Assembly: GCA_041658725.1 (NCBI GenBank)
Contig: JBAZZQ010000008.1
Span: forward strand, 18,070-82,069
Source of the DNA: Phycisphaerae bacterium
GTDB taxonomy: Bacteria > Planctomycetota > Phycisphaerae > JAAYCJ01
Direction: 5' to 3'
DNA length: 64,000 nucleotides
Numbering within the stretch: position 1 is the stretch's first letter; every line of letters starts with the position of its first letter. The notes below the pieces were generated by a model. It was given only the letters and a program-made list of their open reading frames with translations, was not told the origin of the DNA and made no database searches. Shown one piece after another: positions 8,864 to 61,541 of the stretch. Made by a program: the position numbers and the translations under genes.

Positions 8864-9062
8864 TCTTGATCCCTCCTCTCATTTGCCCACATCAGCAGTG
8901 GGTAATTCTAACGTCCCCGAAAAAAAACTTGGTAAAATGAAACAAAGCACCCTTAAATTTCTTCGTCAGATTCGGCAGCAAAAAGATAAAGGTATTTCGT
9001 CCCACTGGAAGCATCCTGTCCAATTATATTATACAATACAAAATACCAGCGATATGACACCT

Positions 9063-9188
9063 GATTAATTAATGCGCTCGGAGGCAAGTCGTCGATGCTC
9101 GTTTATGGTGGGTTGTCATGCTGATTTAGGCTTCAAAGCCGTTATTAACGCGGCGATGGATATTTGTCTCAGAGCGCATTAATTAATC
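9063..9188. repeat. 17-bp perfect inverted repeat (GATTAATTAATGCGCTC / GAGCGCATTAATTAATC) enclosing a 93-nt spacer. This is a candidate structured RNA or regulatory element.
   Basis: The arms at 9063-9079 and 9172-9188 are exact reverse complements. The element lies in the 540-bp divergent intergenic region. Confidence 0.5.
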
Positions 9189-9402
9189 ATGTGTCGTATA
9201 ATACCCGCAGTTCCCGTATTTCCATCACCATCCGGATTGACCGGATGATCCAGATTTGCCTTTTCGGCCACAAATAAAGGAAAAGACGCATGCAACGCGT
9301 CTCTACAAGTGATAAAGCCTGTGGCGAAAGATTGCGGGGGCTTAACACATCTGGAATTTTCCGGTATACTCTTTACCTTTATTACCGGTAAAGGCTCAAA
9401 AA

Positions 9403-12204: not shown

Positions 12205-12751
12205 GATTTAAATGGACTTTCCGATGATGTCGAAGATATCAGCGAATGGAGAGTTTTATTGCAAGATTCTGGAAATTTTGGTATCGTCCCAAAGGTTGGG
12301 GAAACCATGTATCTGTTACTTATCAGCTATCCAGAAAGAGGATCGCGCTTGTCCGAGCCCTCAACGGTCTTTTCCATAACTTCCCAGCGGGCAAAGAGCT
12401 GGATGTCCGCCATCGACCAAAATACACTCATGGGTCGTTTCATGTTCACCTCAACGAGACTCATCTATAAGTGATTGCCAAAACAACATTTAGCAAATGA
12501 TTGACTCCAAGTGGTCTTTCTTTGCCGACAAAGCCAGTTCAACGATGGCCGCCAGCCCTGTCAAATCGCTGACACCGTTTCAGTTTGGGTAAACATCGCC
12601 GGGGATTTACCTGGGTAGCTGGCTCCTCTACAAGGGAACCTTCTGCCGATTCCCTATCCCCAGCTTTTGGGACGATAATGAAATTTTGCAATAGGCTGCT
12701 CATTTAACGAAAGCCATAAGACGGTGCAGTACCGTCAACTAGCAAAGGAGA

Positions 12752-13894
12752 ATGGCTATGAAGCGGAATTTGACCATTATCACTCTGTCGATTCTGTGGT
12801 TTTTATCATATTTTTCACCGTTGGTCTGGGCGGTTTCCGGCTCCGTTTACTCGGTGGGCAATGATACATACGGGCAATTGGGCATCAATCCCAGATTACC
12901 AGTGTCGGCGTCGATCAACGGCGTGGTGGGAATCGCCGCGAGCTACTACCACAGCCTTGCGGTCAAGGGCGACGGGACCGTATGGGCATGGGGATACAAC
13001 GGCTATGGCGAGTTGGGCGACGGGACTACGGTGGATCGCTCGACGCCGGTGCAGGTTTCGGACCTGACGGGCGTGGTGGGAATCGCAGCGGGCGGCTTCT
13101 ACAGCCTTGCGGTCAAGGGCGACGGCACGGTATGGGCATGGGGATACAACGACTCCGGCCAGTTGGGCGACGGGACTACGACGAATCGTTCGACGCCGGT
13201 GCAGGTTTCGGACCTGACGGGCGTGGTGGGAATTACCGCGGGCGGCTTCCACGGCTTGGCAGTCAAGGGCGACGGCACCGTATGGGCATGGGGACAGAAC
13301 GACTTCGGCCAGTTGGGCGACGAGACTACGACGAATCGTTCGACGCCGGTTCAGGTATCGGGCCTGACGGGCGTAGTGAGAATCGCAGCGGGCTACTACC
13401 ACAGCTTGGCGGTCAAGGGCGACGACACCGTCTGGGCATGGGGATACAATGGCTACGGACAGTTGGGCGACGGTACTACGACGGATCGTTCGACTCCGGC
13501 GCAGGTCTTGGGCCTGACGGGCGTGGTGAGAATCGCCACGGGCGGTTTCCACAGCTTGGCGGTCAAGGGCGACGACACCGTATGGTCATGGGGATACAAC
13601 GGCTACGGTCAGTTGGGCGACGGTACTACGACGGATCATTCGATGCCGGTACAGGTATCGGGTCTGACGGGCGTAGTGGGAATCGCCGCGGGCTACTATC
13701 ACGGTCTAGCCATTAAAATTCTCAGCGGCGACTGCGACGACGACGGCAACGTGACGGCGGCGGACCTATTGATCGTGCTCAACAGCATGGATAAATCGAC
13801 GGGCGAGGTGGATTACGACGGCCGTGCGAACCTCGACGGCGATGGATCAATTAGCTCAACCGATCTTGCCATCGTGTTGGATAATATGGAATAG
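12752..13894 (+). CDS. Secreted RCC1-repeat (beta-propeller) protein with a C-terminal type-I dockerin module
   Basis: Signal peptide. Seven ~50-aa RCC1/ATS1 repeats (VWAWGYNGYGQLGDGTT...). The C-terminal DCDDDGNVTAADLLIVLN...DLDGDGSISSTDLAIVLDNM has two dockerin Ca-binding repeats. Confidence 0.8.
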   Translation: MAMKRNLTIITLSILWFLSYFSPLVWAVSGSVYSVGNDTYGQLGINPRLPVSASINGVVGIAASYYHSLAVKGDGTVWAWGYNGYGELGDGTTVDRSTPVQVSDLTGVVGIAAGGFYSLAVKGDGTVWAWGYNDSGQLGDGTTTNRSTPVQVSDLTGVVGITAGGFHGLAVKGDGTVWAWGQNDFGQLGDETTTNRSTPVQVSGLTGVVRIAAGYYHSLAVKGDDTVWAWGYNGYGQLGDGTTTDRSTPAQVLGLTGVVRIATGGFHSLAVKGDDTVWSWGYNGYGQLGDGTTTDHSMPVQVSGLTGVVGIAAGYYHGLAIKILSGDCDDDGNVTAADLLIVLNSMDKSTGEVDYDGRANLDGDGSISSTDLAIVLDNME

Positions 13895-14810: not shown

Positions 14811-16178
14811 ATGAAGGGAACTTATGATCCGAAGCCTTATGACTTGGATTTAACTCGGTGGCCGTCAATTGTCGTTCCTCCGCCTGGACCCAGGAGTAAG
14901 GCGATGCATGACGCGACGTCGAAGATTATGAAAGGTTTATCGGGGCAGGTGAAACTGTTCCCGGTGGTGTTTTCGGAAGGCAAAGGCTGCACGCTGACGG
15001 ATATCGACGGGAATCGGTATATTGATTTTTCCAGCGGAATTTATGTGACCACGTTGGGACATTGCCACCCGAAGATTTCCGAGGCCGTGGCACATTGGGC
15101 GCATACCCTTATGAATGCCCATGATTTTACCACTCCTGTCAAACACGCGTTGCTGGAGAAATTGCTGGCGGTCTTGCCTGGAGATTACGGTGGGGTGCAA
15201 TTATATGATTCGGGAACCACGGCGGTGGAGGCCGCCATTCGAACGGCGCGGGCGGCTACGGGCAAGCCTGAATTTCTTTCCTGTTTTGGCGATTTCCACG
15301 GTAAAAGCGGTTGTTCAGCCTCATTGGCGAGGATGAATAAAATCTATGGTCCGACCCGGATGCCTGGGTTTTACATGCTGCCTCGTCCTGATCCTTACCG
15401 TCCGTGGTGGACACGGCCCGATGGATCACTGGATACGGAAAAGTATCTGGAGTTTTACGATACGTTTATTCTGGAAGGGACGACGAATCAGATCGCGGGG
15501 ATTGTCCTGGAACCCATCCAGGGGTGGGCGGGAAGTATCATGCCGCCGGATGATTTTTTCCCGAAACTTCGTCATTGGTGCACTGATCGAAAAATTCTCC
15601 TGGTCGATGACGAGGTGCTGTGCAGCATGGGTCGAACCGGATATTGGCTGACGGCGGAACATTGGAAGGTGACGCCGGACATTGTGACGCTTGGCAAGGG
15701 TTTTGGAAACGGTTTTCCGGTAACGGCCATGGTTGTTCGGAAGGAATACGCGGAGGCAGTGGATAAAATTTCCGCCTCGACCAGCTATGGTGGAAATCCG
15801 ATGGCCTGCGCGGCGGCGTTGGCGAGTATCGAAGTGATCGAGGAAGAAGGGTTGCTGGAACATGCCAAAGAACTGGAAAAATCATTTAAGAAGAAATTAA
15901 AAACGATGAAGGAAAACCACCCCATTGTCGGTGATGTTCGATGCCTGGGCTGCCTGATGGGAGTGGAACTGGTCAAAGACCGCGGCACAAAGGAACCCTT
16001 CGATGACGCCGGCAAGCGGGTCTACCAGCGTGCGTTTTCGAAAGGTCTGGCGTGGATTCCGGCGGGGCATATTTTGCGGATGAGTCCTCCCATCGTTATG
16101 CCGGAAGACGTCGCGGCCAAGGCGATGGATATTATCGACGAATCAATCGGTGAGGTAGAAAAAGAGCTTGGATACTGA
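14811..16178 (+). CDS. Class-III PLP-dependent aminotransferase (AT-III family)
   Basis: 455 aa with the AT-III fold. The PLP lysine lies in the LGKGFGNGFP region. The DxxxT...TLGK architecture is typical of GabT/ArgD-like enzymes. Confidence 0.8.
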   Translation: MKGTYDPKPYDLDLTRWPSIVVPPPGPRSKAMHDATSKIMKGLSGQVKLFPVVFSEGKGCTLTDIDGNRYIDFSSGIYVTTLGHCHPKISEAVAHWAHTLMNAHDFTTPVKHALLEKLLAVLPGDYGGVQLYDSGTTAVEAAIRTARAATGKPEFLSCFGDFHGKSGCSASLARMNKIYGPTRMPGFYMLPRPDPYRPWWTRPDGSLDTEKYLEFYDTFILEGTTNQIAGIVLEPIQGWAGSIMPPDDFFPKLRHWCTDRKILLVDDEVLCSMGRTGYWLTAEHWKVTPDIVTLGKGFGNGFPVTAMVVRKEYAEAVDKISASTSYGGNPMACAAALASIEVIEEEGLLEHAKELEKSFKKKLKTMKENHPIVGDVRCLGCLMGVELVKDRGTKEPFDDAGKRVYQRAFSKGLAWIPAGHILRMSPPIVMPEDVAAKAMDIIDESIGEVEKELGY

Positions 16179-16181
16179 AAA

Positions 16182-17324
16182 ATGAAAACAATTTCCTTCG
16201 GAATAATCGGTTGTGGTCTGATGGGCCGGGAATTTGCCAGCCTGACGGCAAGATGGTGTCATCTTCTCGATGTGGATTTTCAGCCGCGGATCGCGGCGAT
16301 CTGCGATACCAATGAGTCGCTGTTTGGCTGGTACAAAAACCATTTCCCGTCGATCGAACAATTCACGACGAATTATCGGGACCTGCTGGCCAATCCCCGG
16401 ATAGAAGCGATTTATTGCGCCATTCCTCATCATCTGCACCAACAGGTGTACTGCGACATCGTCCGGGCAGGAAAACATTTGATGGGGGAAAAACCGTTTG
16501 GGATCGACAAACCAGCCAACGACGCGATTTTGTCCTGCCTGAAGGAACATCCGAACGTTTTTGTTCGCTGCAGTTCGGAATTTCCATTTTATCCCGCTGC
16601 CCAGAAAATCTGCGATATGATCGAGAACAAAGCCTTCGGCAAAATCATCGAGGTCAACAGCGGTTATCTTCACTCCAGCGACCTGGACCCGAACAAACCC
16701 ATCAACTGGAAACGGATGGTCGAATTCAACGGTGAATACGGCTGCATGGGCGATTTGGGGATGCACGCCTGTCATATCCCTTTTAAAGCGGGTTGGAAAC
16801 CGGTCAACGTGCGCGCCCTGCTGGCCAAAATCATTACGGAGCGTCCCGATGGAAAAGGGGGGCAGGCTGCCTGCAAAACGTGGGACAACGCCACCCTGTG
16901 TTGCGAGGCCCGTGATCCCGACCGGGGTGAGCTATTTCCGATGATCCTCAAGACCCATCGGATCGATCCTGGCCAGAAGAACACATGGTACATTGAAATC
17001 AAGGGCACGAAGGTTTCGATGCGATTCAGCACCAAATTGCCCAAAACGCTTTTTTGGATGGACTACCAGGGCGGAGAACAAATCTGGCAGCAGATCGACA
17101 TGGGAAACGACACCGCTTTTAAAACCATCACCGGGGGTATTTTTGAAATCGCGTTTTCCGACGTGATCTTCCAGATGTGGGCCGCTTTTTTGTACGAATA
17201 CGTGCATGGAAAACCCCTTAAAAGATTTGCCGCTTGCGTGACTCCTCAGGAAACCGCCTGGACCCATGAGCTGTTTACCGCGGCCTTGGCCTCGCAGCGC
17301 GAAACAAAAACCGTTGAGATTTAA
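16182..17324 (+). CDS. Gfo/Idh/MocA family NAD(P)-dependent oxidoreductase
   Basis: N-terminal Rossmann ISFGIIGCGLMGREFA and a C-terminal alpha/beta domain. Confidence 0.8.
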   Translation: MKTISFGIIGCGLMGREFASLTARWCHLLDVDFQPRIAAICDTNESLFGWYKNHFPSIEQFTTNYRDLLANPRIEAIYCAIPHHLHQQVYCDIVRAGKHLMGEKPFGIDKPANDAILSCLKEHPNVFVRCSSEFPFYPAAQKICDMIENKAFGKIIEVNSGYLHSSDLDPNKPINWKRMVEFNGEYGCMGDLGMHACHIPFKAGWKPVNVRALLAKIITERPDGKGGQAACKTWDNATLCCEARDPDRGELFPMILKTHRIDPGQKNTWYIEIKGTKVSMRFSTKLPKTLFWMDYQGGEQIWQQIDMGNDTAFKTITGGIFEIAFSDVIFQMWAAFLYEYVHGKPLKRFAACVTPQETAWTHELFTAALASQRETKTVEI

Positions 17325-17327
17325 AAT

Positions 17328-18695
17328 ATGTTATTTTGTGGAATTGACATAGGCACATCGAACACCAAGGCGGTTGTCATTGACGCCGAGGGTGAGCTTC
17401 GCGGCCGTATCACTATTCCTCTCGGAGTGGAAAGTCGCAAGGACGAATTTCCTGCCGCCGTGTGGGTAGATCATTTTCAAAAGGCCTTGAACTTTCTGGC
17501 GTCTCAGAGTCGTTCAGACGATCAATCTTTGTGCGTTGGGATTACAGCACAGGGTGGCAGCATGGTTCTTCTGGATGAAGAGTATCAACCCATTTCCACG
17601 GCCATGTCGTGGACGAAATTGGCATCCGATACTATCCTCCGGGAACTCAGGGGAGCAGTTTCGTTTGGGGATTTTTATGAGAAAACCGGGTGGCTGCCCG
17701 ATGGGTGGATGGGGGTATGCAAAGTCATGGAATTATTACGCAATAACCCTAAGCTCAAACAAAAATTAAAATATATCGCCTCGGTCCCTGACTTCGTTGG
17801 GGCCCAGGTATTCGGAACCTTTGTTACGGATGTCACACAGGCCCAAATCACCGGGTTTTATGATTTTACCCAAATGGACTGGATATCTGAAATTCTGAAC
17901 CGAATGGGACTGACCGGTGAGAACTTTGCCGAGGTAAAATCCGCCACGGAAATTCTGCGTGAAAATTTTTCCCTTTATTCCTCTCGGATAACTCTGATGA
18001 GCAGTTCACACGATCAATACGCCGTCATGCGCGCCTGTGGTCTGAATGACGATGGTTTTATGCTGGCAACAGGTAGTGCCTGGGTTGTCAACGGAAAATC
18101 GAAGCGTCCGTTGTATGACGGCGATTGTATGATTCATCCCGGCCGTGATTTGGAGGGTGGATTCGGGTACATTATATCATTTGAGGCCATAGGCAAGCAT
18201 TTTGATGAATTGTTAATCCATTTGGATGTGGATTATGATCTTTTGGCGGCAATGGCGGAGGATATTCAAAAGATAGAGATTCCGGATCAGCCCATTGATA
18301 CAACAACAATAAATTCATGCTCCGCCAAACCCGAAGCGATTCGGCGGTTTATGGAGGCGACCGTGGCTCGGGTACGCTTTGTTCTTGAAAAGAAACAATT
18401 ACTTGCGGGCATAAAAAAACTGCTTATGACCGGAGGATCCGTGGGAAATAATCTTTGGCCACAATTTCTGGCTGATATTTTGAATATCCCCGTGGATGCC
18501 GTCCGGTTCAATGAATTGACGGCCTATGGCGCCGCCCTTTTTTCCAGAACCGGGATGACCGGAGTGACCCCGCCCCACCGCTGGCCGATGGGAATAGCCG
18601 TTACGTTGTACGAGCCTCGGACTGCACGAAAATATGATGACTGGTTTTATGGCAAACAAGTTCCGTTGTTGGAATGGGGAGTTAACCGTGACTGA
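17328..18695 (+). CDS. FGGY-family carbohydrate kinase
   Basis: N-terminal GIDIGTSNTKAVV phosphate-1 motif. The C-terminal GGSVGNNLWPQFLADILNIPV...ELTAYGAAL is the FGGY C-domain signature. Confidence 0.65.
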   Translation: MLFCGIDIGTSNTKAVVIDAEGELRGRITIPLGVESRKDEFPAAVWVDHFQKALNFLASQSRSDDQSLCVGITAQGGSMVLLDEEYQPISTAMSWTKLASDTILRELRGAVSFGDFYEKTGWLPDGWMGVCKVMELLRNNPKLKQKLKYIASVPDFVGAQVFGTFVTDVTQAQITGFYDFTQMDWISEILNRMGLTGENFAEVKSATEILRENFSLYSSRITLMSSSHDQYAVMRACGLNDDGFMLATGSAWVVNGKSKRPLYDGDCMIHPGRDLEGGFGYIISFEAIGKHFDELLIHLDVDYDLLAAMAEDIQKIEIPDQPIDTTTINSCSAKPEAIRRFMEATVARVRFVLEKKQLLAGIKKLLMTGGSVGNNLWPQFLADILNIPVDAVRFNELTAYGAALFSRTGMTGVTPPHRWPMGIAVTLYEPRTARKYDDWFYGKQVPLLEWGVNRD

Positions 18696-20094
18696 TCGTC
18701 AAACAAAAAAATATTCCATCGGTTTTATTCCGGTGATGGCGAAACTCTACAAGAACCTTCTTCCGGATTTGCAGGTCCAACTCCAACAATTTTCCGGTCA
18801 GATTGGCCGGGCGTTATCGGATCGTCAACTGGAAATAAAAACCGGCCAGGTTGCCGTTGAGGATTCGGAAATTCGACGGCAAATCCGTTCGTTCGAAGAG
18901 GCGCATATCGACCTTCTGGTCATTGGGCACGTCAGTTATTGTCCGAGCGGGGAAATTCTTCCCGGATTGCTGAAAACGAAGTTGCCTGTGCTCCTCTGGC
19001 CGGCTCAGCCCATGCTTGAATTAAGCGGCAAGCATTACGATGGGGAGGCTATGATTCACAATCATGGCGTTCACGGAACGCAGGACCTGGCGAATATTTT
19101 GATGCGAAACAATCGCCCCTGTGGTGTTTTGCATGGCCATTACCGCCAACTGTCCTTCAAAAAAGAATTGCTCTCCTGGGTTCGGGCCGGTCGTGCAGTT
19201 ACTTCCATGAAATCATCCCGGCCGCTGGTTCTTGGAGGTCATTTTGAGCAAATGCTTGATCTTCAATTGGGAAAAACAAATTTTCCAAAAACCTTCGGCA
19301 TCCAATCGCGTGAAATATCGCTGAATGAATTTATCCAATCCGTGAAAACCGTTTTGGAAAAAGACATTAAGGCTGGAATTAATCGCTATCGATCCTGTTT
19401 TGAATTGGACAAACACCTGACCCAGACATTTCTTGAAAAAACGGCCCGCCATGACGTTGCCTTGCGAAATCTCATGCGCCAGCGCAAAAGTTCCGCCGTC
19501 GGAATCAATTTTCAGGCTTTATGCAACGATCCCCGAATCGGAGATGCACTGCACGTAGCGGCCAGTCTGCTTATGTCGGACGGGTTGGGTTACGCGGGGG
19601 AAGGCGATTGGGTTACCGCGATGCTCGTTTGTGGGCTAAGGTCGATCTCGCCAAGAGTGACGTTTACGGAAATTTTTTCCGTGGGTTATCGGGATAACCG
19701 CCTGGTGCTCCGCCACTGGGGAGAAGGAAATTTTGACTTGGCCAGAAAAAAACCTCTTCTTAAAATCAGTCAATTCAAAGATAAGCATCCCGCCGAATTC
19801 GCGGTCATGAATTTTGAATTTAAGCCAGGACTGGCGACTCTGGTCAACCTGAACGTTGGAAAGGACGGACATGCGCAAATCCTTTCCATCGCCGGCAGGA
19901 TTGCCCCCGAATCACTTTCCGCGGTGGATGGCCCGCGAGGGATATTCAAGCCAGACCGGAAGCAAATTTCCGAATTATTGAGCGACTACGCGTATCAGGG
20001 CGGCAGCCATCATCTGGTGATGGTTATGGAGCAGGCTGAGAATGTTTTGGACAAAATTTCAAAATTAACCGGCTGGAGGTATGTAAAGGTATAA
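18688..20094 (+). CDS. L-arabinose isomerase family protein (AraA-like sugar isomerase)
   Basis: GYAGEGDWVTAMLV and GGSHHLVMV match the AraA active-site regions (GFAGEGDWKTAAL; GGAHHTV). A GTG start overlaps the upstream stop (GTGA). Confidence 0.55.
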   Translation: MTDRQTKKYSIGFIPVMAKLYKNLLPDLQVQLQQFSGQIGRALSDRQLEIKTGQVAVEDSEIRRQIRSFEEAHIDLLVIGHVSYCPSGEILPGLLKTKLPVLLWPAQPMLELSGKHYDGEAMIHNHGVHGTQDLANILMRNNRPCGVLHGHYRQLSFKKELLSWVRAGRAVTSMKSSRPLVLGGHFEQMLDLQLGKTNFPKTFGIQSREISLNEFIQSVKTVLEKDIKAGINRYRSCFELDKHLTQTFLEKTARHDVALRNLMRQRKSSAVGINFQALCNDPRIGDALHVAASLLMSDGLGYAGEGDWVTAMLVCGLRSISPRVTFTEIFSVGYRDNRLVLRHWGEGNFDLARKKPLLKISQFKDKHPAEFAVMNFEFKPGLATLVNLNVGKDGHAQILSIAGRIAPESLSAVDGPRGIFKPDRKQISELLSDYAYQGGSHHLVMVMEQAENVLDKISKLTGWRYVKV

Positions 20095-20102
20095 CAAAAT
20101 TG

Positions 20103-20219
20103 AATATCCAATATCCGACACTCAACACCCAACATCCAAGTAAAGAAAACAAGAGACGCCGAATCCTTGCCCTTCTCTTCACTTGAGTGTTGGATGTCGA
20201 GTGTTGAATGTTGGATATT
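20103..20219. repeat. Heptamer-periodic hairpin element (ATATCCA/ACAYYCA units). The left arm is repeated at 60139-60176. It probably acts as a terminator or REP-like element.
   Basis: Left arm 20103-20141 and inverted right arm 20181-20219, each built from five 7-nt units. It lies 9 nt after the isomerase stop. Confidence 0.5.
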
Positions 20220-20252
20220 AAATTGAATTTCCTATTTATTGAAGGAGAATTT

Positions 20253-21062
20253 ATGAAAGACAATTTGTTTTTTTCACGGTTTTTTAGCGAGGGTCCTGTT
20301 TTGGTGGTGGCCGTCGATCATGGTTTGTTCGACGGTCCGGTTCCCGGAGTCCACCAGGTAAACAAAATTGCCGAAAATATCCATCCGGACATCGACGCCG
20401 TGCTGGTTTCCCCCGGAATGTTTCGACACCTCAAGGAGGATCTCTTTGGCAAACGTCATTGCCCCCAACCGATCGTTCGGATCAATTGGTCGAGCATCTA
20501 CTGCTTTTCCTGGGACTATCATGCGGGAGATACCGTAACGACTTATCAGCCAATGGACCTCTTGAAAATGGGAGTCCCCGTGGTTTTGATTTCCCTCTCC
20601 TTACGAACCGGATCAGAAGCGAGGGACGCCGAAAACGTAAAAATATTCGCCGACCTGTGCCGGCAGGCTCATGACCTGGGCATGATGGTGATCGGGGAAT
20701 ATTTTCCGGTGAACGATGAAAAACTCAACGTTGACGAGATGCACGAGGAGATCAAAATCGGATGCCGTATTCTTTTCGAATTGGGGGCCGATGTGATTAA
20801 AACCTTTCATACCCGCGACTTTGACAAAGTGGCGCAAGGTTGTCCTATCCCGATTCTGACCCTGGGCGGCAAGCGCGCCCCCTCGGACCTTGCCGCGCTG
20901 GAAATGGCTGAAATCCAGATTAAATCCGGGGCAGCGGGGATCGTCTTCGGGCGAAACGTCTTTCAGTCGCCCAAGCCCATTGCCCTGCAAAAGGCGATCC
21001 TGGACGTTTTAAAAAATAACGTTTCCGCCCGTCAGGCGGCCAAAAAACATGGACTAAAATAA
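20253..21062 (+). CDS. Class I (DhnA/FbaB-type) aldolase, DeoC/LacD superfamily
   Basis: VVAVDHG N-terminal motif. Schiff-base lysine context GADVIKT. Length 270 aa. RBS ggaga. Confidence 0.7.
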   Translation: MKDNLFFSRFFSEGPVLVVAVDHGLFDGPVPGVHQVNKIAENIHPDIDAVLVSPGMFRHLKEDLFGKRHCPQPIVRINWSSIYCFSWDYHAGDTVTTYQPMDLLKMGVPVVLISLSLRTGSEARDAENVKIFADLCRQAHDLGMMVIGEYFPVNDEKLNVDEMHEEIKIGCRILFELGADVIKTFHTRDFDKVAQGCPIPILTLGGKRAPSDLAALEMAEIQIKSGAAGIVFGRNVFQSPKPIALQKAILDVLKNNVSARQAAKKHGLK

Positions 21063-21078
21063 AAAAGGAAATAGAACC

Positions 21079-22329
21079 ATGAACGAAAAACTTATTCGAG
21101 TGGGTGTGCTGGGGGTTGGACGCGGCCGGGGTTTTGCGCTCGGCGCCGGTCCGCATCTTGGTATGCAACTGGTTGCCCTGTGTGATACCTGGGAAGAAAA
21201 ACTTCGCCAGGTCGGTAAGGAATTAAACGTTACAACCTACACCGATTATCAAAAATTCCTGGCCCACGACATGGACGCGGTGATCCTCGCGAATTTTTTT
21301 CACGAGCACGCCCCATTCGCAATCCAGGCACTTGCCGCCGGAAAGCACGTCATGAGCGAAACCGCCGCATGCTTTACACTAGGGGAGGGAGTGGCACTCA
21401 TAGAGGCTGTGGAAAAGTCGGGCAAAACCTACATGTTCGCCGAGAATTATCCGTACATGGTATTCAATCAGGAAATGCGCCGTATCTACCACACCGGAAA
21501 GCTTGGTGAGGTTCAATACGCCGAGGGTGAATACATTCACCCCATGTCCGCAGAGTTTTACAACTCTATCTCCTGTGGTTACAATCACTGGCGAAACTGG
21601 CTTCCCCTTATTTATTACAGCACCCATGCCCTGGCGCCGGTGATGTATGTAACCGACACCTGGCCGACGAAAGTCAACGGATTCATTGTTCCATACGACC
21701 CCGAGGATAAAGAACATTTTCAAAAAACCGTCCGGCGAAGCGACCTGGCCTGGGCTATCATGCTCCACATGGACAACCAATCGCTGGTCCGACTCACCGG
21801 CCTGTCGCAACGGGGGCATGGGAATTGGTACCGCTTCCACTGCCAAAAGGGCTTGATGGAAAATCTGCGATATGGCAATCCTGACATGGTCCGCATCCAT
21901 CGCGAGTCCTATGACCGGAAAAAAGGCGAGCCGGAGGAAATGATTTGTCTTCCCGAATTTCCCGAGTACCACGACCGTGCGACGCAAAGCGGCCACGGCG
22001 GCGGGGATTTTTTCATGAACCTGCATTTCGCCCAGTCCATTCGCACCGGGAAACCCCCATATTTCGATGTCTACCGCGGGGTGGCCATGTCCATTATCGG
22101 GTCGCTAGCCTACCGGTCCGCTCTGAACAACTCCAATACCGTCGAGGTTCCCGATTTTCGAAAACCTGCCCAACGGGTCAAATACAAAAACGATCATTGG
22201 AACCCCGACCCGAAGCGTTACAAAAAAGGTTACCCCAAATCCAGTATTCTCGGCGACATCAAACCCCCGGCCAGCGGGTTCGCCTTCGCCCATAAATGCT
22301 GGAAGAAAGCCGGATACCACGGCGAATAG
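21079..22329 (+). CDS. Gfo/Idh/MocA family oxidoreductase
   Basis: IRVGVLGVGRGRGFA Rossmann start. It carries a long C-terminal extension typical of glycoside-hydrolase-109-like/MocA members. Confidence 0.75.
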   Translation: MNEKLIRVGVLGVGRGRGFALGAGPHLGMQLVALCDTWEEKLRQVGKELNVTTYTDYQKFLAHDMDAVILANFFHEHAPFAIQALAAGKHVMSETAACFTLGEGVALIEAVEKSGKTYMFAENYPYMVFNQEMRRIYHTGKLGEVQYAEGEYIHPMSAEFYNSISCGYNHWRNWLPLIYYSTHALAPVMYVTDTWPTKVNGFIVPYDPEDKEHFQKTVRRSDLAWAIMLHMDNQSLVRLTGLSQRGHGNWYRFHCQKGLMENLRYGNPDMVRIHRESYDRKKGEPEEMICLPEFPEYHDRATQSGHGGGDFFMNLHFAQSIRTGKPPYFDVYRGVAMSIIGSLAYRSALNNSNTVEVPDFRKPAQRVKYKNDHWNPDPKRYKKGYPKSSILGDIKPPASGFAFAHKCWKKAGYHGE

Positions 22330-22342
22330 GGAGGAAACTTCC

Positions 22343-23428
22343 ATGCCGCTATTGTACAAGGATGACTGGGACGAAACCAAAGACCGATACCGCGCCTGGT
22401 GGAACGGCGAGTATATCGGTCGCTGCGGATTGTTCGTTACCGCGCCGCGAGAGGGAATCCCCAACACCCCCCCGCCGACACCGCCCGAAGACCCGGAAGA
22501 ACGCTGGACGGACCTGGACTACATGTGTAAAGCCCAGGACTATGAATTTCGAAGGACGTATTATGGAGCCGAAGCGTTTCCCAATTATTATCCCGGTTAT
22601 CCTGGCCATACGGCCATTCCGGCTTTTTTAGGATGCAAGACGACCCTGGACCATGAAACCGGATGGTGGGAGCCTTTTTTGAGCGGCCCAGAATGGAGAA
22701 TTAAAGACATCGTTCTGAACAAAGAATCGCGATGGTGGAAGTTTGCCATCGAGCAATTAGACCGAATGACAAACGATGCCCTGGGAAAAGCTATTCCCAG
22801 TACCGGCGCGTTCGGAGGATCAGGTGATACTCTGGCAGCCATTCGTGGCACAGACCGACTCCTCATCGACGTGATGGAACGGTCTGATCTTGTTCGCCAA
22901 ACCGAAGAGTACCTGATGGACATGTGGTTTGAGGTTTATGATACATTTTACGACATTGTCAAAGAATCGACCGACGGCGGATCACAAGGATGGTTTCCAT
23001 TATGGGCCCCCGGAAAGTTCTATGGCGCGCAGAATGATTTTTCATACATGATCTCACCGGCCATGTTCCGCGACCTCTTTTTGGCCGTGATTCGCCGGCA
23101 AACTGAATTTTTGGATTATACGATCTACCACGTCGACGGGATCGGCGCCTTCGCCCACGTGCCCGCCTTGTGCGAACTTCCCAAACTCCAAGCCATTCAA
23201 ATTTTACCCGGTGACGGGAAACCCAGCCCGCTGCATTATCCCCAAGTGCTTAAAATCGTACAGCAGGCTGGAAAAAATCTTTGGATCATGATCGAACCAA
23301 ACGAAGTGGAACAGGCCCTCGCCCTGTTGTCAGCCAAAGGGTTGTTTATCCATACAACATGCAAAACGGAATCGCAAGCCCGGCAATTAATCGAAAATGT
23401 CAAAAAATGGTCCCGGAGACGAATATGA
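22343..23428 (+). CDS. Uroporphyrinogen decarboxylase (URO-D)-like family protein of unknown function
   Basis: Strong RBS gggagga. The size and the C-terminal region (HVDGIGAFAHVPALCELPKLQAIQI) resemble URO-D/MtaA-like TIM barrels. The assignment is tentative. Confidence 0.45.
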   Translation: MPLLYKDDWDETKDRYRAWWNGEYIGRCGLFVTAPREGIPNTPPPTPPEDPEERWTDLDYMCKAQDYEFRRTYYGAEAFPNYYPGYPGHTAIPAFLGCKTTLDHETGWWEPFLSGPEWRIKDIVLNKESRWWKFAIEQLDRMTNDALGKAIPSTGAFGGSGDTLAAIRGTDRLLIDVMERSDLVRQTEEYLMDMWFEVYDTFYDIVKESTDGGSQGWFPLWAPGKFYGAQNDFSYMISPAMFRDLFLAVIRRQTEFLDYTIYHVDGIGAFAHVPALCELPKLQAIQILPGDGKPSPLHYPQVLKIVQQAGKNLWIMIEPNEVEQALALLSAKGLFIHTTCKTESQARQLIENVKKWSRRRI

Positions 23429-24555
23429 ATTTAGGCAAGTCCGCAAAATTGGCATGGCAAACGATTCGCCAGGAACCGACGAAGGGAATTCCCTCCTGGA
23501 TGATTCTTGTGATGGAACATTCAATCATCGAGCGTTTTGCAGGCGTAGAACCGGGGGCCTATTGCAACGACCCGGAACCTGTTTACATCAAATTCCAGCA
23601 GTCCGTTGGAACCTGTATGTTGGATCAGTACATTCCAACCAATCCCCTGACTATAGGCAACCACGGTTATGAAAACACCGAAAAAGGCGCCACAACCGGG
23701 GCGGATAAAATTGTCCTCGACGGTCTGTTGATCGATTCCCCGGAAGCCGTCATCGAACATATAGAGACTTTTATTTTCCCGGAAATCTCAAAACAAATCT
23801 CCGCATATGACGAAACCCGTCATGTTCAGCAACTTTTACAGGAAGAAACTGACATTCAGAAAAAGCTTGGCCCAGGTATTTTAAAAGTACCTTATAACGC
23901 CAGTATTCCTTTCCTTCTTTATGGAACGTATGGGTATTCCGAATTCTTTATGGCCTATGCGTTGTACCCGGAAGTGATGGAAAAGTATTTTTCATTATCC
24001 GCGGACCTGGGCCTTATTAAAAATCGGGGGCTCGCCCGTGCCTTTCAGGAGGGAAATCTTCCTCCTCTGCTGCGGGTCGATAGTGATATGGCCGACTCGC
24101 GGGGCACTTTGGTTGATATCAAATCCCTGGATAAAATCTGGTTCCCTCACTTTGCTCGCAGTCTGGAGCCTTTACTCCAAGCCGGCATTAAGATGATCTG
24201 GCACTGTGACGGAAACCTTATGCAGATGGTCCCTCGATTGCTGGATGCCGGGCTGTGTGGGTTCCAGGGTTTCCAATACGAAGACGGAATGGATTATGAA
24301 AAAATCTGTAAAATGAAAGCCCGGAATGGAAACGACCTTATCATTATTGCCGGGGTTTCTGTAACTCGGACGCTCCCCAAAGGAAAACCGGACGATGTTA
24401 AACGTGAATTGAAATGGCTGGTTGAAAAGGGTCCTAAAACCGGATTATTCCTCGGTGGGTCCAGTTCGATTACTCCGGGAGTGAGCTATGAGAATATTAA
24501 AACCCTGGTCGATGGCCTGCTTCATTACCAGGAACATGGCAGGGCCGGCCTATGA
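23424..24555 (+). CDS. URO-D-like (methyltransferase MtaA/CmuA-like) family protein
   Basis: The C-terminal block HCDGNLMQMVPRLLDAGLCGFQGFQYEDGMD is typical of the URO-D superfamily. The start overlaps the upstream stop (ATGA). Confidence 0.5.
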
Positions 24556-25604
24556 AACCGGTGATCCAAATCACTCCTTACGACCGGGCATTTTACGATG
24601 AATTCATTCGGGATTTTCTGCCTCCCGCCGTGATCGATATCCATACTCACGTCTGGCTGGAGCAATTCCGTTCCACAGACCCCAACCCGCGTCCACTGGT
24701 AACATGGCCCGCACGGGTCGCTTCGGAAAATTCCATCGAACATTTGCGGGAAACTTACGAATTGATGTTTCCCGGCAAAATTGTTACCCCGCTTGTTTTT
24801 GCCAATGTCCTATCCCGGAAAGACTGTCTGGAGGCAGGAAATGACTATATCGCCGAGTGCATGAAAACATGGAATCTGCCCGGTTTGATCTGGTCCACTC
24901 CCGACTGGAACGGGCAGGAACTGGAAACGAAGATTCGTGCCGGTAACTTTCGTGGGGCAAAATCCTATCTCGCCCTGGCCCCAGCCCATATCCCCGATTC
25001 GGAAATCACCATCTATGATTTCTTCCCCCCTCCGCAATTGGAAGTGTTAAATCATCATGGATGGATCATGATGCTGCATATCCCCCGTCCGGGACGTTTG
25101 CGCGATCCGGTGAACTTGCGGCAGATGATCGAAATTGAGAAAAAATATCCAAACATCAAACTGATTATCGCCCACGTCGGGCGCGCCTATTGTCCCGAGG
25201 ATATCGGAAACGCCTTCGAGACGCTGGCTGACACTCGATCCCTGATGTTCGACATATCCGCCAATACTAATCGTATCGTCTTTGAAAAACTTATTTCCGA
25301 GGTGGGTTCTGAGCGTATTTTATTTGGAAGCGATCTACCCATCGCCCGAATGCGGATGCGGCGTATCTGCGAAAACGGCAGATATGTCAATCTGGTTCCT
25401 CGTGGATTGTACGGCGACGTTTCGGCCGATCCTAACATGCGTGAAGTGGAAGTTGACGACGCGGAGCAGATGACATTCTTTCTGTATGAAGAAATCAAGG
25501 CCTTTCGTCTTGCCGCCGAGAAGGCCGGACTTAACAAAAACGACATAGAAGATATCTTTTGCCATAATGCCCGTAGACTTATTCAGGACACGATGGAAAC
25601 CTGA
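24552..25604 (+). CDS. Amidohydrolase-2 family metal-dependent hydrolase (TIM barrel)
   Basis: DIHTHVW N-terminal metal-binding motif and an HVGRAY histidine later in the sequence. Translationally coupled to the upstream gene. Confidence 0.65.
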   Translation: MKPVIQITPYDRAFYDEFIRDFLPPAVIDIHTHVWLEQFRSTDPNPRPLVTWPARVASENSIEHLRETYELMFPGKIVTPLVFANVLSRKDCLEAGNDYIAECMKTWNLPGLIWSTPDWNGQELETKIRAGNFRGAKSYLALAPAHIPDSEITIYDFFPPPQLEVLNHHGWIMMLHIPRPGRLRDPVNLRQMIEIEKKYPNIKLIIAHVGRAYCPEDIGNAFETLADTRSLMFDISANTNRIVFEKLISEVGSERILFGSDLPIARMRMRRICENGRYVNLVPRGLYGDVSADPNMREVEVDDAEQMTFFLYEEIKAFRLAAEKAGLNKNDIEDIFCHNARRLIQDTMET

Positions 25605-37510: not shown

Positions 37511-37584
37511 GGCCGTGTAGCTCAGATGGTTAGAGCATGGGATTCATAAACCCAAGGTCGTCAGTTCGATTCTGACCGCGGCCA
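37511..37584 (+). tRNA. tRNA-Met (anticodon CAU). G1-C72 is paired, so it is elongator Met or tRNA-Ile2(k2CAU). The 3' CCA is not encoded.
   Basis: The cloverleaf was checked by hand. Acceptor GGCCGTG/CGCGGCC. D-arm GCTC/GAGC. Anticodon loop TTCATAA with U33 and A37. T-arm GTCAG-TTCGATT-CTGAC. Confidence 0.85.
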
Positions 37585-40819: not shown

Positions 40820-40924
40820 AAATGACTAAATCCTAATGACGAATGTCTAATCAATGACTAAGCCCTAATGTCTAAAAGGATTTGGTCATTAGACATTACT
40901 TCGTCATTAGTCATTAGGATTTAG

Positions 40925-41938
40925 TCATTTCCTTTTTCCATTTCCACCGTATGCCTCAACTATAGTTTGGACGAGTCGATGACGAACGATATCCACTCCG
41001 GTGAGGCGAACCACGCCGATGCCCTTGACACCACCGAGTTTCCTGACGGCATCGACCAGTCCGGACTGATCCGGGCGTTCCAGATCGACCTGCGTGTCGT
41101 CTCCGGTGACTACCATCTTAGAATGATGTCCAAGCCGCGTCAAGAACATGAGCATTTGGGAGGCGGTGGTGTTCTGAGCCTCATCCATGATAATCGCGGC
41201 ATTATTCAGGGTTCTTCCTCGCATGTAGGCCAGTGGAATTACCTCGATCAAATCGTTCATCATAAAACGTTTGAGCTGATCGAACCCCATCATTTCTTGC
41301 ATGGCATCGAAGAGAGGCCGCAGATACGGATTCACTTTCGCCTGCAGATCGCCGGGAAGATAACCAAGTTTTTCTCCTGCCTCCACGGCGGGTCTGACCA
41401 GGACAATCCGTTTAATGACTCCTTGTTTAAGCGAGGAAACCGCCATCGCCACAGCGAGATAGGTTTTACCCGTTCCGGCGGGACCCAGACAAAAGACAAG
41501 ATCGTTATTGGCGATGGACCGGATATACTCCGCCTGGCCGGGTGTTTTCGGGATAATTTTGACTCCCCTGGTAAAGACCTCGATCGTTTCTGTAACAATT
41601 TCCCCTTTGCCCTGCGATTTTTCCTCTTCAATTGCAGGTTCCAGGGAGGCCAAGGCTTCGTGAACGTCGGCCACGTCCAACTGGTCGCTATCAAGAAGCA
41701 TCTGCTGCATCCGCTCGATGACGGAGGCGGTCTTGCCCACCGCTTCGGCGCGACCACAGAGTTTTACCGAACTATCTCTCGCCACCACCTGAACGTCGAA
41801 CATTTCCCGCAGGATCCGCAAATTTTTGTCATTGGGTCCAAAAAGGGCTGTTCGATGGGCGTGGGGCTGTAATGTTATCGTTAAATCCAATTCGGACTCT
41901 CCTGCGTTTATAAAATGTATTTTAGCGCCAGATACCAT
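40925..41938 (-). CDS. phoH: PhoH-like ATPase
   Basis: Walker A GPAGTGKTYLAVAMAV and the PhoH core. An N-terminal KH-like region is present. Confidence 0.9.
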   Translation of the reverse strand: MVSGAKIHFINAGESELDLTITLQPHAHRTALFGPNDKNLRILREMFDVQVVARDSSVKLCGRAEAVGKTASVIERMQQMLLDSDQLDVADVHEALASLEPAIEEEKSQGKGEIVTETIEVFTRGVKIIPKTPGQAEYIRSIANNDLVFCLGPAGTGKTYLAVAMAVSSLKQGVIKRIVLVRPAVEAGEKLGYLPGDLQAKVNPYLRPLFDAMQEMMGFDQLKRFMMNDLIEVIPLAYMRGRTLNNAAIIMDEAQNTTASQMLMFLTRLGHHSKMVVTGDDTQVDLERPDQSGLVDAVRKLGGVKGIGVVRLTGVDIVRHRLVQTIVEAYGGNGKRK

Positions 41939-44829: not shown

Positions 44830-44848
44830 TTTTGCTTTCCATTTTTTG

Positions 44849-45361
44849 AACCACAGAGATCACAGAGATCACAGAGAAAATCATAAGACATCTATACATA
44901 AATCATTCCGGCTTAATCCCCTTTATGTTAGAATAATCCGTTTGATTCCATCGACGAGCATTGGGACGTTAAAGTTAATCAATAGCCCAAGTTGTTTTCC
45001 CGTGGCTTTGAGATAGGAAAGCACTTGAGCGGAATGAATAGGGGCAAGTTCCTTTGTTGCCTTTATTTCAAGGATAAGAGCATCTTCGATTAAAAAATCC
45101 AACCGATGCTCTCCGACACATTCGTTTTTGTAATGGATTTTCACCGGTGCCTGACGGATAAAAGAAATTTCTTTCAATCGAAGTTCCACACATAGCGATT
45201 CTTCGTAAATGGTCTCTAAAAATCCCGGCCCAATTACTCGATGCACCTCAATAGCAGTGCTAATGACAGAATGAGAAAGGCTATTGAGACCATTACTGAA
45301 GGTATTTTGCCTATTATTCATAAACATTTCTTTCTCTGTGTTCTCTGCGATCTCTGTGGTT
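44849..45361. mobile_element. TIR-flanked cassette of ~513 bp carrying a GxxExxY gene. The 30-bp terminal inverted repeats are built from CACAGAGAT tandem units.
   Basis: Left end 44849-44880 aaccacagagatcacagagatcacagagaaaa. The reverse complement of the right end (45331-45361) is aaccacagagatcgcagagaacacagagaaa. Confidence 0.45.
44923..45327 (-). CDS. GxxExxY family protein (PD-(D/E)XK nuclease superfamily)
   Basis: GPGFLETIYEESL contains the G-x-x-E-x-x-Y signature, with a downstream D...E.K (LIEDALILEIKA). Confidence 0.75.
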   Translation of the reverse strand: MFMNNRQNTFSNGLNSLSHSVISTAIEVHRVIGPGFLETIYEESLCVELRLKEISFIRQAPVKIHYKNECVGEHRLDFLIEDALILEIKATKELAPIHSAQVLSYLKATGKQLGLLINFNVPMLVDGIKRIILT

Positions 45362-45374
45362 TAAACCTCTTTTA

Positions 45375-59600: not shown

Positions 59601-60129
59601 CAAGATGGCCATCGCCACGCTGGAAGATCTGAAAGGAAAAACGGAAATCGTGATTTTCCCTGATCAGTATGGGCAAGTGCAGGACCTGATTCAGCCGGAC
59701 CGATTGGTGTTTGTCCGGGGCAGAGTGGACCGTCGGCGCGAGGTGCCTTCGGTTCGGGCGTCGGAAGTCTACGCGATGGAAAAAGGTCCGCAGCATTTGA
59801 CGAGCGATTGTGAAATTAAACTCACCGCCATTGGCTTGGGCACTGATACGATGGACAAATTTCATGCGATCTGTAAAAAGTATCCGGGTCAAAGCAAGAT
59901 TCTCTTTAACATCCGCACGAGCGAAGGCCATATCGTCGTCGTCCGGGCCGGAGATCACATCCGCATTTCGCCGAGCGGGGAATTTTTATCCGATGTGGAA
60001 ATTCTCCTTGGGCCGGGTCACATACACCTCCTCGCTGGTTCCTTAACCAACGGGGGCAAACCGAGCAATGGGGGCCAGCGATTCTGGCGGGCGAAGAACG
60101 GCCAAACGGCCGACGGCGCGGCGAGGTAA
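56605..60129 (+). CDS. dnaE: DNA polymerase III alpha subunit
   Basis: PHP domain (HLHVHTHYSLLDG), followed by the polymerase core, OB fold and C-terminal regions. Length 1174 aa. GTG start with RBS aggaag. Confidence 0.95.
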   Translation: MSQSFVHLHVHTHYSLLDGACRLEDLFSRCKQLGMNTLAITDHGNMFGAIEFYTKAQAAGIKPIIGYEAYIAPGDRREKEAKGIDEASYHLLLLAQNFTGYKNLLKLATTAYLDGFYYKPRIDKAVLKELNEGLICTSACLAGEISDKIMRQDLAGATMVAEEYAAMFGEKRFFIELMDHGIPEQKFVNEQLVDIADKLGLGLLATNDVHYLNQEDARAHEILMCVNTGKKLTDEKRLTFGSDKFYLRSGQEMAEVFKAYPQALSNTVQLAHHCNLELDFKKRYAPVYHPPEKKKPDDYLRELVYEQAEKLYGAITDDIRKRIDYELQVICSKGFSSYFLIVWDFVNFARQNGIPCGARGSACGTVVGYCLELSNVDPLKYELYFERFMDPERNDMPDIDMDMCQTNRPRVIDYVRRKYGHVAQIVTFNTMAARAAIRDVGRVMDIPLSQVDQIAKKVPFGAKVTLQDALDTEPDLKKLVAENPQIKDLMDVALRLEGLARNSSVHAAGVVIADVALEELVPLCKSGDDILTQYEGTIVEKVGLLKMDFLGLRTLSTLQRTVDLIEQQCGKKIDFENVPLEDPKVFEIFYSGRTKGIFQFESDGMRDLLMRMKPDRLADLIAANALYRPGPMVLIDDYIQRKHGTTWQAPHEIVKEVLKDTHGIMVYQEQVMRLCNQLGNIPMGRSYKLIKAIGKKNEEIISAERDAFLAGCRENGVAKDKAEELFDLIKRFAGYGFNKSHSTRYAMIAYETAYLKAYYPLQFMAALLTFEMGDTDKIVEYIDEARKMGIDVQAPDINASGVDFTVVYEKDKGLIRFGLAAVKGVGSKAVEAIVQARQAGGPFKSLFDFCRRVDLKNLNRGTIESLIKCGAFDSTGAKRKAMVDGLDRALEFASGLQRDANAGQMSFFDNFEKQADVVDEKLGSEEWPESDLLSFEKQTLGFYVTSHPLAQQAALLSSYATADTRKLGELDDGHEIVIGGLIEKVRTVVVKGRNGNGPAKMAIATLEDLKGKTEIVIFPDQYGQVQDLIQPDRLVFVRGRVDRRREVPSVRASEVYAMEKGPQHLTSDCEIKLTAIGLGTDTMDKFHAICKKYPGQSKILFNIRTSEGHIVVVRAGDHIRISPSGEFLSDVEILLGPGHIHLLAGSLTNGGKPSNGGQRFWRAKNGQTADGAAR

Positions 60130-60138
60130 GAGAATTAA

Positions 60139-60176
60139 ATATCCAATATCCGACACTCAACACCCAACATCCAAGA
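60139..60176. repeat. Second copy of the 37-38-nt heptamer-repeat element (identical to 20103-20140), 9 nt after the dnaE stop
   Basis: Exact match AATATCCAATATCCGACACTCAACACCCAACATCCAAG. It is followed by a degenerate octamer-repeat tract (TACTCGTC/TACTAGTC). Confidence 0.5.
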
Positions 60177-60221
60177 AAAAAATGTCGGACTCCGAAACTA
60201 CTCGTCTACTCGACTACTAGT

Positions 60222-61541
60222 CTACTTCTTAAACGTCGGCAGGTAATCCTTATTCTTTTTAAACATGGCGTCTACCATTTTTTTGATCTCGGCCAGGGAC
60301 AGGACGGCGGCGGTCAACGGGTCGTAGGCGATGGCCTGGAAGACAAGTTGTTTGTCGCCGGTGAGGCACCCTTCGACGGCCATTTCTTCGACGGCGACGC
60401 TGATGTTATTCAGGGCGGCGCACTGCGGGGGCAAGGCGCCGACGTAAATGGGGTTAAACCCGCTTTTATCCGCATAAACCGGGACTTCGACACAGGCTCC
60501 GTACGGGAGATTTGTGATCAGGTTGGTGTTGGGGACGTTGCCGTTGAATTTAAACGGCTGACCGCCGAGCCAGGCGTTGATGATGGATGCGGCGTATTCG
60601 TGTCCTCGTTTCAGGTCCAGCGGTTCGGTGCTTGTGATCCACTTTTCTGCCTCCTTACGCCAGGTTTTTTTTCTGTCTTCATAATATTTGACGATGTAGG
60701 CGTATTCGCCCGGGTTCCAGCCGGTGCCGGTGATGCAGTATTTCTTGATCAGGTCCGGTCGTTTGCGGAACCACCAGTTGTATTCGGAATTGTGGCCGCT
60801 GGATTCGGTGACGTAGTAGCCGAGGTGCAGGAACATTTCGTTTCGGACCTGCTCTCCGTTATAGATTTTTTTATTGGTTTCGACGGCCTTTCGGATTAGG
60901 GGAATAGCGTCTTTGCGATTCCGGTCGTATTTGATATACCAGGCTTGGTGGTTAATTCCAGCACAGACGTAATCGATTTCTTCCATGGGGGCCCCGATCC
61001 ATGTGGCAAGCATTTCCGCGGTGCCCTGGACGCTGTGACACAGGCCGGTGACGCGGACGTTGTTTTTTTGCTGCATGGCTCGGCAGAGCATGGCCATAGG
61101 ATTGGTATAGTTCAGCAAAATCGCGTTGGGGGCGTATTTTTCAATGTCGCGGCAGATATCGAGCATGACGGGGATCGTCCGCAAGGCTCGGAAGATGCCG
61201 GAGGGTCCGCGGGTATCGCCGACGCAGGTATCGACCCCGAATTGTTTGGGAATCAGAATATCATGCCGCCAGACATCCACGTCGCCGGCGAGGATGGTGC
61301 ACAAAACGGCATCAGCCCCTTTGAGAGCTTCCTTGCGGTCCTTGGTAACGATGATTTTGGCCGGATAGTTTCCTTCCCGGACGATTCGTTCCACGGATCG
61401 TTTGGCAAAATTGAGTCGTTCATCGTTAATATCCATCAACGTGAGAGTGGATCCTTCGAGCGAGGGAAACGTCAGCAGGTCCTTGACCAGCGTTCGGGTA
61501 AATCCGAAGCTACCTGCACCGATGAACGTAATTTTCGGCAT
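60222..61541 (-). CDS. Glycoside hydrolase family 4 (NAD+/Mn2+-dependent alpha-glucosidase/alpha-galactosidase)
   Basis: [16 protein letters not shown] Rossmann start and the conserved GH4 Cys/His region (GLCHSVQG). Confidence 0.85.

Follow-up and report, generated by a model that had tools for sequence, protein, structure and literature searches.

A tandem-heptamer hairpin inside a Phycisphaerae operon, probably an ORF-less form of a cassette resembling rRNA intervening sequences

Tandem heptamer repeats between the genes of cyanobacteria (STRR) have been known since 1990, and intergenic heptamer repeats are over-represented in many bacteria; we know of no accepted function for them. In the window studied here, the whole stretch of 64 kb that was analysed from a Phycisphaerae MAG, one and the same series of heptamers follows two unrelated genes, an AraA-like gene and dnaE. 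What is this element, and is it there for the benefit of the operon in which it lies? The positions of the features are collected in Table 1.

Table 1. Repeat elements of the 64-kb window and their positions.
Feature	Position	Strand	Remarks
Whole ORF-less hairpin, copy 1	20096..20229	+	Between AraA-like stop (20094) and DeoC-like start (20253); limits from alignment with L129 and L135
Left C-rich arm (38-mer) of copy 1	20103..20140	+	Five AYAYYCR heptamers and AAG
Loop of copy 1, 29 nt	20147..20175	+	Homologous among ORF-less copies; common ACGCCG core
Right G-rich arm of copy 1	20176..20224	+	Heptamer portion 20181-20219
Solo left-arm copy (copy 2)	60127..60182	+	Includes dnaE TAA and flank TAAGAGAATT; truncated in the loop
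8-mer array, (CTACTCGT)x3.6	60198..60226	+	Unrelated to the heptamers; overlaps TAG stop (60222-60224) of convergent GH4 gene
Second ORF-less heptamer hairpin, GTCATTA-type	40820..40930	-	From PhoH stop (40925-40927) to 7TM-HD gene start (40819)
ORF-bearing cassette, GxxExxY / PDDEXK_3 gene (44923-45327)	44845..45365	-	Inverted CACAGAGAT 9-mer arms

The hairpin between the AraA-like and DeoC-like genes

The 38-nt string AATATCCAATATCCGACACTCAACACCCAACATCCAAG was found exactly twice in the window, as the left arm of copy 1 and at 60138-60175 (copy 2), both times on the + strand. An earlier note on this DNA had described it as a 37-nt repeat with its second occurrence one position further on; the exact repetition at the two loci was borne out, with the length and the second locus corrected as given here. 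The placement of the string 9 nt after two stop codons also held, as both are TAA (20092-20094 of the AraA-like ORF, 60127-60129 of dnaE), 8 nt intervene and the repeat begins at the ninth nucleotide. Across 100 shuffles no match to the duplicated string was obtained.

The left arm of copy 1 was composed of the five 7-nt units that the note had named (ATATCCA, ATATCCG, ACACTCA, ACACCCA and ACATCCA), and the right arm read ACACTCA, ACATCCA, ACACTCG, ACATTCA and ATATCCA on the complementary strand. AYAYYCR was fitted by every one of the 15 heptamers that make up the three arms (copy 1 left and right, and copy 2). At a lag of 7 the nucleotide identity of the arms was 21/28 and 19/28, and in a purine/pyrimidine code it was 28/28; the three arms were the sole places in the 64 kb where such a lag-7 periodicity was detected. 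A chance origin of the arms of copy 1 and copy 2 was ruled out by the shuffles and the heptamer statistics within the window.

An inverted arm had been described at 20181-20219. It proved to be real, and the stem reached beyond it, with 20098-20146 facing 20176-20224 in arms of 49 nt. The distance from the end of the left 38-mer to the inverted heptamer arm was 40 nt, and a loop of 29 nt separated the extended stems. RNA folding, which the note had proposed as a check, gave a minimum free energy of -50.6 kcal/mol for copy 1 (z -8.6), and 0/200 shuffles folded equally well. Between the left and the right arm 42/52 positions matched; the differences were 9 transitions and 1 transversion.

The sequence of the hairpin was identical in an independent ENA assembly, which ruled out an assembly artefact as its origin. 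A G-quadruplex was rejected because the G-rich arm has GG or GGG once per 7-14 nt, without four G3 tracts. The Rfam search of the element returned nothing at the gathering threshold; hairpins resembling miRNA precursors scored up to 42 bits against cut-offs of 59-140 bits, and with sub-threshold matches only, identity with a known RNA family was ruled out for copy 1. No rRNA was found in the 64-kb window, copy 1 lying between two protein-coding genes and not in a 23S helix.

Copy 1 occupied the sole large gap (158 nt) in a tight co-directional operon (14811-25604) whose genes otherwise nearly abut. Both flanking genes are on the + strand, the DeoC-like gene begins after the hairpin with a strong ribosome-binding site and an ATG at 20253, and at least five co-directional genes lie downstream. 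The scan for terminator-like sites at copy 1 found none. The hairpin lacks a U-tract, its tail being AAATTGAATTTCC, and no promoter-like site was found in the scan between copy 1 and the next gene. We therefore rejected a canonical terminator, and because of the missing U-tract and the position in the middle of an operon we consider a terminator role for copy 1 unlikely; it is probably transcribed through. In the syntenic operon of the closest relative available (73% amino acid identity) neither the hairpin nor an array was present; the gene order differs there, so that the comparison gives an absence only and defines no precise empty site.

The note had likened the element to a REP or terminator family. 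Dispersion after stop codons was confirmed, with at least six copies in the MAG as described below, and the terminator part became unlikely with the missing U-tract and the position within the operon. A rival reading is a REP-like 3' structure selected by the host, which would stabilise the mRNA or terminate transcription partially and in this way set the ratio of upstream to downstream expression, the family being kept as useful. The location 8 nt past a stop codon, as in many REP and BIME elements, and the great stability of the hairpin speak for it. The absence of a U-tract and of any terminator-like site, the at least five downstream genes and the lack of a promoter-like site after the hairpin speak against it, as does the absence of the element from the relative's operon.

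Copies of the element in the same MAG

Counting beyond the two loci of the window, as the note had proposed, uncovered further copies. A metagenome scan with a 21-nt core yielded 34 loci, of which 4 were on other contigs of one assembly. The NCBI accessions MFA5863590/1, MFA5863776 and MFA5865868/9 tie the contig of the window to those of the loci L126 and L135, which places them in the same MAG. This Phycisphaerae MAG holds at least six copies: copy 1, copy 2, L126, L129, L135 and L143. The 38-mer was exact at five of these loci and had three differences at the sixth, L143.

Two of them, L129 and L135, are full hairpins without an ORF; they lie at unrelated loci and are each 87-88% identical to copy 1 over approx. 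132-135 nt. The alignment of the three had a mean identity of 88%, and the similarity was bounded by AAAAT... on the left and by ...AAATTGAATT on the right. The consensus fold was preserved in 3/3 ORF-less copies. As the loops too are homologous among copy 1, L129 and L135, we concluded that copying involved the ORF-less form as such. The neighbours of L129 are convergent genes, a setting suited to a bidirectional terminator and so a point in favour of the REP-like role.

These copies also bear on polymerase slippage, by which the arms would be microsatellites formed in place and the identical 38-mers a matter of coincidence or local gene conversion. Microsatellites made of one repeated heptamer of this unit class are indeed common across many phyla, and the over-representation of heptamer SSRs has been ascribed to slippage (PMC4692102). 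The 38-mer is, however, a heterogeneous order of five units that recurs exactly at five MAG loci and with three differences in L143; the flanks are common to the copies, the full copies share the loop and the right arm as well, and no shuffle gave a match. We regard slippage as scarcely credible here.

A pattern of change that would point to selection on RNA pairing was not detected. Inter-arm differences in the hairpin family of the MAG were mostly transitions (23 vs 7). Between the three ORF-less copies covariation was uninformative, with a compensatory change in 1/47 pairs, the changes from copy to copy being otherwise not compensatory. On the sense strand there was no excess of G-U over C-A mismatches, and because G-U is not favoured there, nothing shows selection on RNA pairing. 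Arms without a partner persist: copy 2, L143 and many solo arrays in other genomes. Taken together, the imperfect arms (42/52), the non-compensatory changes, the lack of a G-U preference and the persisting solo arms argue against selection on the RNA stem, and the uncompensated drift and the solo arms also count against a REP-like role.

Alternatively, the element could be a classical MITE, derived by deletion from a DNA transposon and mobilised by a transposase encoded elsewhere in the genome; the four-helix-bundle gene described below would then be only an occasional cargo. The length of approx. 134 bp, the long terminal inverted repeats, the conserved termini (AAAATT...AATATCC / GGATATT...AAATTGAATT) and the several dispersed copies, homologous including the loop, are in keeping with this. 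On the other side, no target-site duplication was visible at the boundaries of the three full copies and no transposase was found beside any copy. We infer mobility from the dispersed homologous copies alone, because neither a target-site duplication nor an empty site was found.

Copy 1 and copy 2 resembled each other over 56 nt at 91%, the stop codon TAA included. The note had described a degenerate partner arm at 60177. This was not confirmed, since there is only a 7-bp complement (TCCGACA/TGTCGGA) at that position, followed by an unrelated 8-mer array; a partner arm for copy 2 was not found within the window. The region folded no better than its shuffles (z -0.3). L143 is a second solo arm and shares the flank TAAGAGAATT with copy 2. 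We regard the copy on the dnaE side as a decayed or recombined half element, a solo arm.

Both solo arms adjoin an array of the same 8-mer type (CTACTCGT / ACGAGTAG), at 60198-60226 in the window and at 5066-5098 in L143, in different relative orientations. From the sequence arrangement this suggests that arms may recombine as modules. No complementary partner for the (CTACTCGT)x3.6 array was found within the window, and the GH4 gene takes its TAG stop from the array. The solo heptamer arm of L143 is followed directly by another dispersed repeat (5168-5231), which recurs in the window at 46844-46907 with 86% identity and in the opposite orientation and forms a small hairpin, GGATCGTCCGG...CCGGACGATCC. 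A second dispersed hairpin family, a GC-rich palindrome (CATTGTGCCACGGTCGGCTTGTCCGACCGTG...) with 31-nt arms, was present at 53867-53937 of the window and, with 94% identity, at 4262-4330 of L126, a different contig of this MAG.

At L126 a gene lies between the arms. The left arm of this locus is the identical 38-mer, the inner stem (CCAAGTNAAGA/TCTTCACTTGG) is that of copy 1, and the right arm matches as well (40/44 paired); the arms enclose an ORF of 130-157 aa that matched PF05635 (3.5e-14), '23S rRNA-intervening sequence protein', and TIGR02436 (1.7e-23), 'four helix bundle protein', as well as PDB 2RLD. The cassette is located between the stop of hslU and the start of a neuC-like gene. 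At the loci examined this PF05635 type was the sole ORF found between arms of the MAG family, and no Y1 RAYT was among them. The reading as a repeat family, correct in the note, had thus missed the form that carries an ORF.

Called ORFs reached into the hairpin arms. At L129 (1185-1228) the convergent gene reads the 38-mer as KYPISDTQHPTSK*, and at L126 (820-904) the four-helix-bundle ORF is lengthened by approx. 27 aa where it crosses the right arm, so that the arrays give rise to C-termini that are spurious or altered. A Logan contig ended within the right arm of copy 1. For annotators this is a warning that hairpins of this kind break assemblies and create spurious ORF extensions.

Inverted tandem arrays around genes in the window and in other genomes

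Two further elements of the window have the same architecture. The GTCATTA-type hairpin, with 42-nt arms that are 86% complementary, exactly fills the gap between phoH and the 7TM-HD gene and contains no ORF. The GxxExxY cassette, with arms at 44845-44879 and 45331-45365, sits between purA and uppS, in the orientation of these two genes. PF05635 and GxxExxY are large, multicopy and uncharacterised families.

Other features were noted in the window. The phoH hairpin and the GxxExxY cassette lie in a segment bracketed by a 395-nt inverted repeat of 97% identity (38013-38407 and 47410-47804, 9 kb apart), formed by two inverted ybeY copies (ORFs 38084-38536 on the - strand and 47152-47676 on the + strand, both PF02130); judged from this arrangement the segment may be invertible. 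A group II intron match (Rfam D1-D4-4, 100 bits) was found at 37847-37986 on the - strand, beside a tRNA gene (37511-37584). The ORF 12752-13894 contains 5.2 copies of a 150-nt tandem repeat (12920-13693, 87% identity), which encode RCC1-like repeats of 50 aa, followed by a dockerin-like tail. Two long non-coding inverted repeats, at 9052-9199 (36-38-nt arms, 72-nt spacer) and 12273-12686 (30-nt arms, 354-nt spacer), were non-periodic and had no convincing ORF between their arms.

A degenerate AYAYYCR scan with one genome per species found at least 120 loci in many phyla. The matches listed were mostly homogeneous heptamer microsatellites, many of them solo arrays; about ten among the matches listed were hairpins with arms of 28-45 nt, roughly 4-6 units. 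In the other phyla these hairpins lay -3 to +10 nt from a stop codon where the end of the neighbouring ORF was visible. The heptad architecture, which the note had called unusual, is neither unusual nor specific to this genome: inverted heptamer arrays near stop codons occur in many phyla, Xanthomonas included.

The four-helix-bundle ORFs in the loci selected for their arrays stood between inverted tandem heptamers in 7/7 cases, a count from loci that had been fetched only for their arrays, one of which (L094) was flanked by a heptamer type other than the one that fetched it. Of 8 four-helix-bundle genes sampled from plasmids without bias, at least 6 were flanked by inverted tandem arrays, in Nostoc ((AATTCAA)4), Planktothrix (AATCCCC/AATCGTA), Chlorohelix, Euhalothece (ACCAGTG), Treponema and Anabaena. 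The 7-nt period around these genes is conserved and the unit sequence is not. This speaks further against a MITE: PF05635 genes across phyla have unrelated arms of the same period, which a single transposon family would not predict, and we consider that explanation very unlikely.

GxxExxY genes adjoining AYAYYCR arrays were not found in the 120 loci listed; CACAGAG-type units are used instead. Inverted tandem units of this type flanked 2 of 4 plasmid GxxExxY genes, as in the window, namely those of the Bacteroides finegoldii and Bernardetia plasmids (L158 and L159). The occurrence of CACAGAG-type arms in the window and in both plasmids means that the arm motif of GxxExxY genes is conserved across phyla. 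The third plasmid case (Sphingomonas) had a tandem 8-mer array, upstream only. Around the genes of these families the inverted tandem-array architecture was present in at least five phyla.

The cassette ORF was co-oriented with the annotated flanking genes in 12/14 loci (binomial P approx. 0.007), counted against the two neighbours wherever each has an annotation; at two plasmid loci only one does. Among the places of insertion are fabD-fabG, cas2-cas1, an RND efflux operon and defence islands. Four-helix-bundle cassettes in defence loci were seen between cas2 and cas1 of Anabaena cylindrica pANACY.01 (L163), where the ORF of the cassette runs antisense to the genes on either side, between DISARM drmD and BREX pglX of Planktothrix p1 (L164), and, on a Chlorohelix plasmid (L166), between a helicase and an N6 methylase.

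Arrays near stop codons have been described before. Rehm et al. found heptamer repeats, mostly of approx. 4 units, in intergenic regions of Xanthomonas and Nostoc; the repeats are no more than 50 bp away from a stop codon or overlap it, mostly between co-directional genes, and each Xanthomonas genome has 70-75 inverted heptamer pairs (PMC4692102). The Xanthomonas repeats are transcribed, and transcript starts and stops inside them exceed controls (PMC4692102). The authors read the repeats as G-quadruplexes, and four-helix-bundle genes are unmentioned (PMC4692102). Copy 1 shares with the Xanthomonas type at least 2-4 tandem units and a nearby inverted array, less than 50 bp from a stop and between co-directional ORFs.

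These data weigh on the REP-like role from both sides. That the hairpins of other phyla abut stop codons, and that Xanthomonas transcripts often end within such repeats (PMC4692102), would suit a structure kept at 3' ends. Cassettes of the same architecture inside essential operons, e.g. fabD-fabG, do not suit it, and with the evidence from the operon and from the arms we consider a host-selected role unlikely.

A proposed non-autonomous cassette riding in operon transcripts

We consider it fairly probable that the element at 20096-20229 is an ORF-less, non-autonomous form of an IVS-like hairpin cassette that rides in operon transcripts. We favour this reading because L126 has the same arms around a PF05635 gene, L129 and L135 are ORF-less homologues and the architecture is general. 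The co-orientation of cassette ORFs with their neighbours, the tight operon whose gap the hairpin fills, its absence from the relative, and the published data on Coxiella and Xanthomonas also speak for it. Against it stands that, to our knowledge, no transposition activity is known for a four-helix-bundle protein. In its full form the cassette would consist of heptamer arms around a four-helix-bundle gene (PF05635/TIGR02436, S23p/Avd-like); homology links PF05635 with Avd, an accessory protein of DGRs (PMC10053308). Copies would be pasted into short intergenic spacers right after stop codons inside operons. The cassette would have no promoter of its own and would be transcribed within the host operon, where the RNA arms would pair in a stem of 45-49 nt. 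By analogy with rRNA intervening sequences, it is plausible that the stem of copy 1 is a substrate of RNase III. Cleavage or read-through would keep the host genes functional, so that the element would be tolerated. The line of descent may have run through loss of the ORF or through its gain. That copy 1 is selfish or neutral seems likelier than that it serves the host as a terminator.

A wider proposal is that four-helix-bundle (S23p/Avd-like) and GxxExxY genes with their arms are widespread operon-riding cassettes whose proteins act on the arrays, propagating or maintaining ORF-less hairpins as RAYTs do for REPINs. We consider it quite doubtful. If true, it would extend the concept of the rRNA 'intervening sequence' to mRNAs and account for the long-noted intergenic excess of heptamers in bacteria (STRR, GGGAATC of Xanthomonas); a pentameric four-helix bundle might bind approx. 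5 heptamers, for example, or a PD-(D/E)XK nuclease might cut CACAGAG arrays.

Heptamer inverted repeats near stop codons (Xanthomonas) and S23p-type IVS were known already. The link between arrays and cassettes did not appear in the searched literature, where our searches for GxxExxY, PF05635, TIGR02436 and tandem heptamer hairpins found no paper linking such genes to flanking arrays. Within one genome the same heptamer arms enclose a four-helix-bundle gene, enclose no gene at all or occur singly, which ties heptamer repeats to PF05635. By linking heptamer repeats, PF05635 and GxxExxY, the locus leads to hypotheses on RNase III excision from operon mRNAs, on recognition of arrays by proteins and on the spread of cassettes.

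Compared with known systems, copy 1 shares with Rho-independent terminators a stable hairpin just past a stop codon; unlike them it has arms of 45-49 nt vs 5-15 bp, is AT/C-rich, lacks a U-tract and lies in the middle of an operon. Like MITEs, its family is small, non-coding and multicopy with terminal inverted repeats, whereas no target-site duplication was seen at the three full copies, no cognate transposase was found and the arms are internally periodic. Like the present family, REP/BIME elements and the REPIN-RAYT system consist of dispersed extragenic palindromes at the 3' ends of genes, with ORF-less doublets far more numerous than the gene that has these repeats, inverted, on its two sides. 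The gene enclosed here is of the four-helix-bundle or PD-(D/E)XK type and not a Y1 (IS200-like) RAYT, and the arms are tandem units of 7-9 nt instead of a single conserved palindrome of approx. 35 nt.

With the (GGGAATC)n repeats of Xanthomonas and the cyanobacterial STRR the element has in common approx. 4-5 tandem heptamers, often in inverted pairs, near a stop codon. It differs from them in that its units have another sequence, are not prone to form G-quadruplexes and are heterogeneous by transitions, and in that no tie to four-helix-bundle or GxxExxY genes, nor dispersed copies with a homologous loop, have been reported for those repeats.

From the S23p-type IVS in the 23S rRNA of Coxiella burnetii and Leptospira the MAG element differs by its intergenic position in protein-coding operons, outside 23S helix 25 or 45, by its many copies per genome and, in copy 1, by a 29-nt loop in place of an ORF; RNase III processing is assumed for it by analogy only. 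The likeness lies in the long inverted-repeat stem around a PF05635 ORF, a layout that L126 shares, in the probable ride inside a host transcript and in an ORF that tends to decay. In Coxiella the IVS carries an S23p ORF; GACAGAT heptamers stand in tandem at the 5' stem, and RNase III excises the IVS at the first of them (Warrier et al., PMC4990558).
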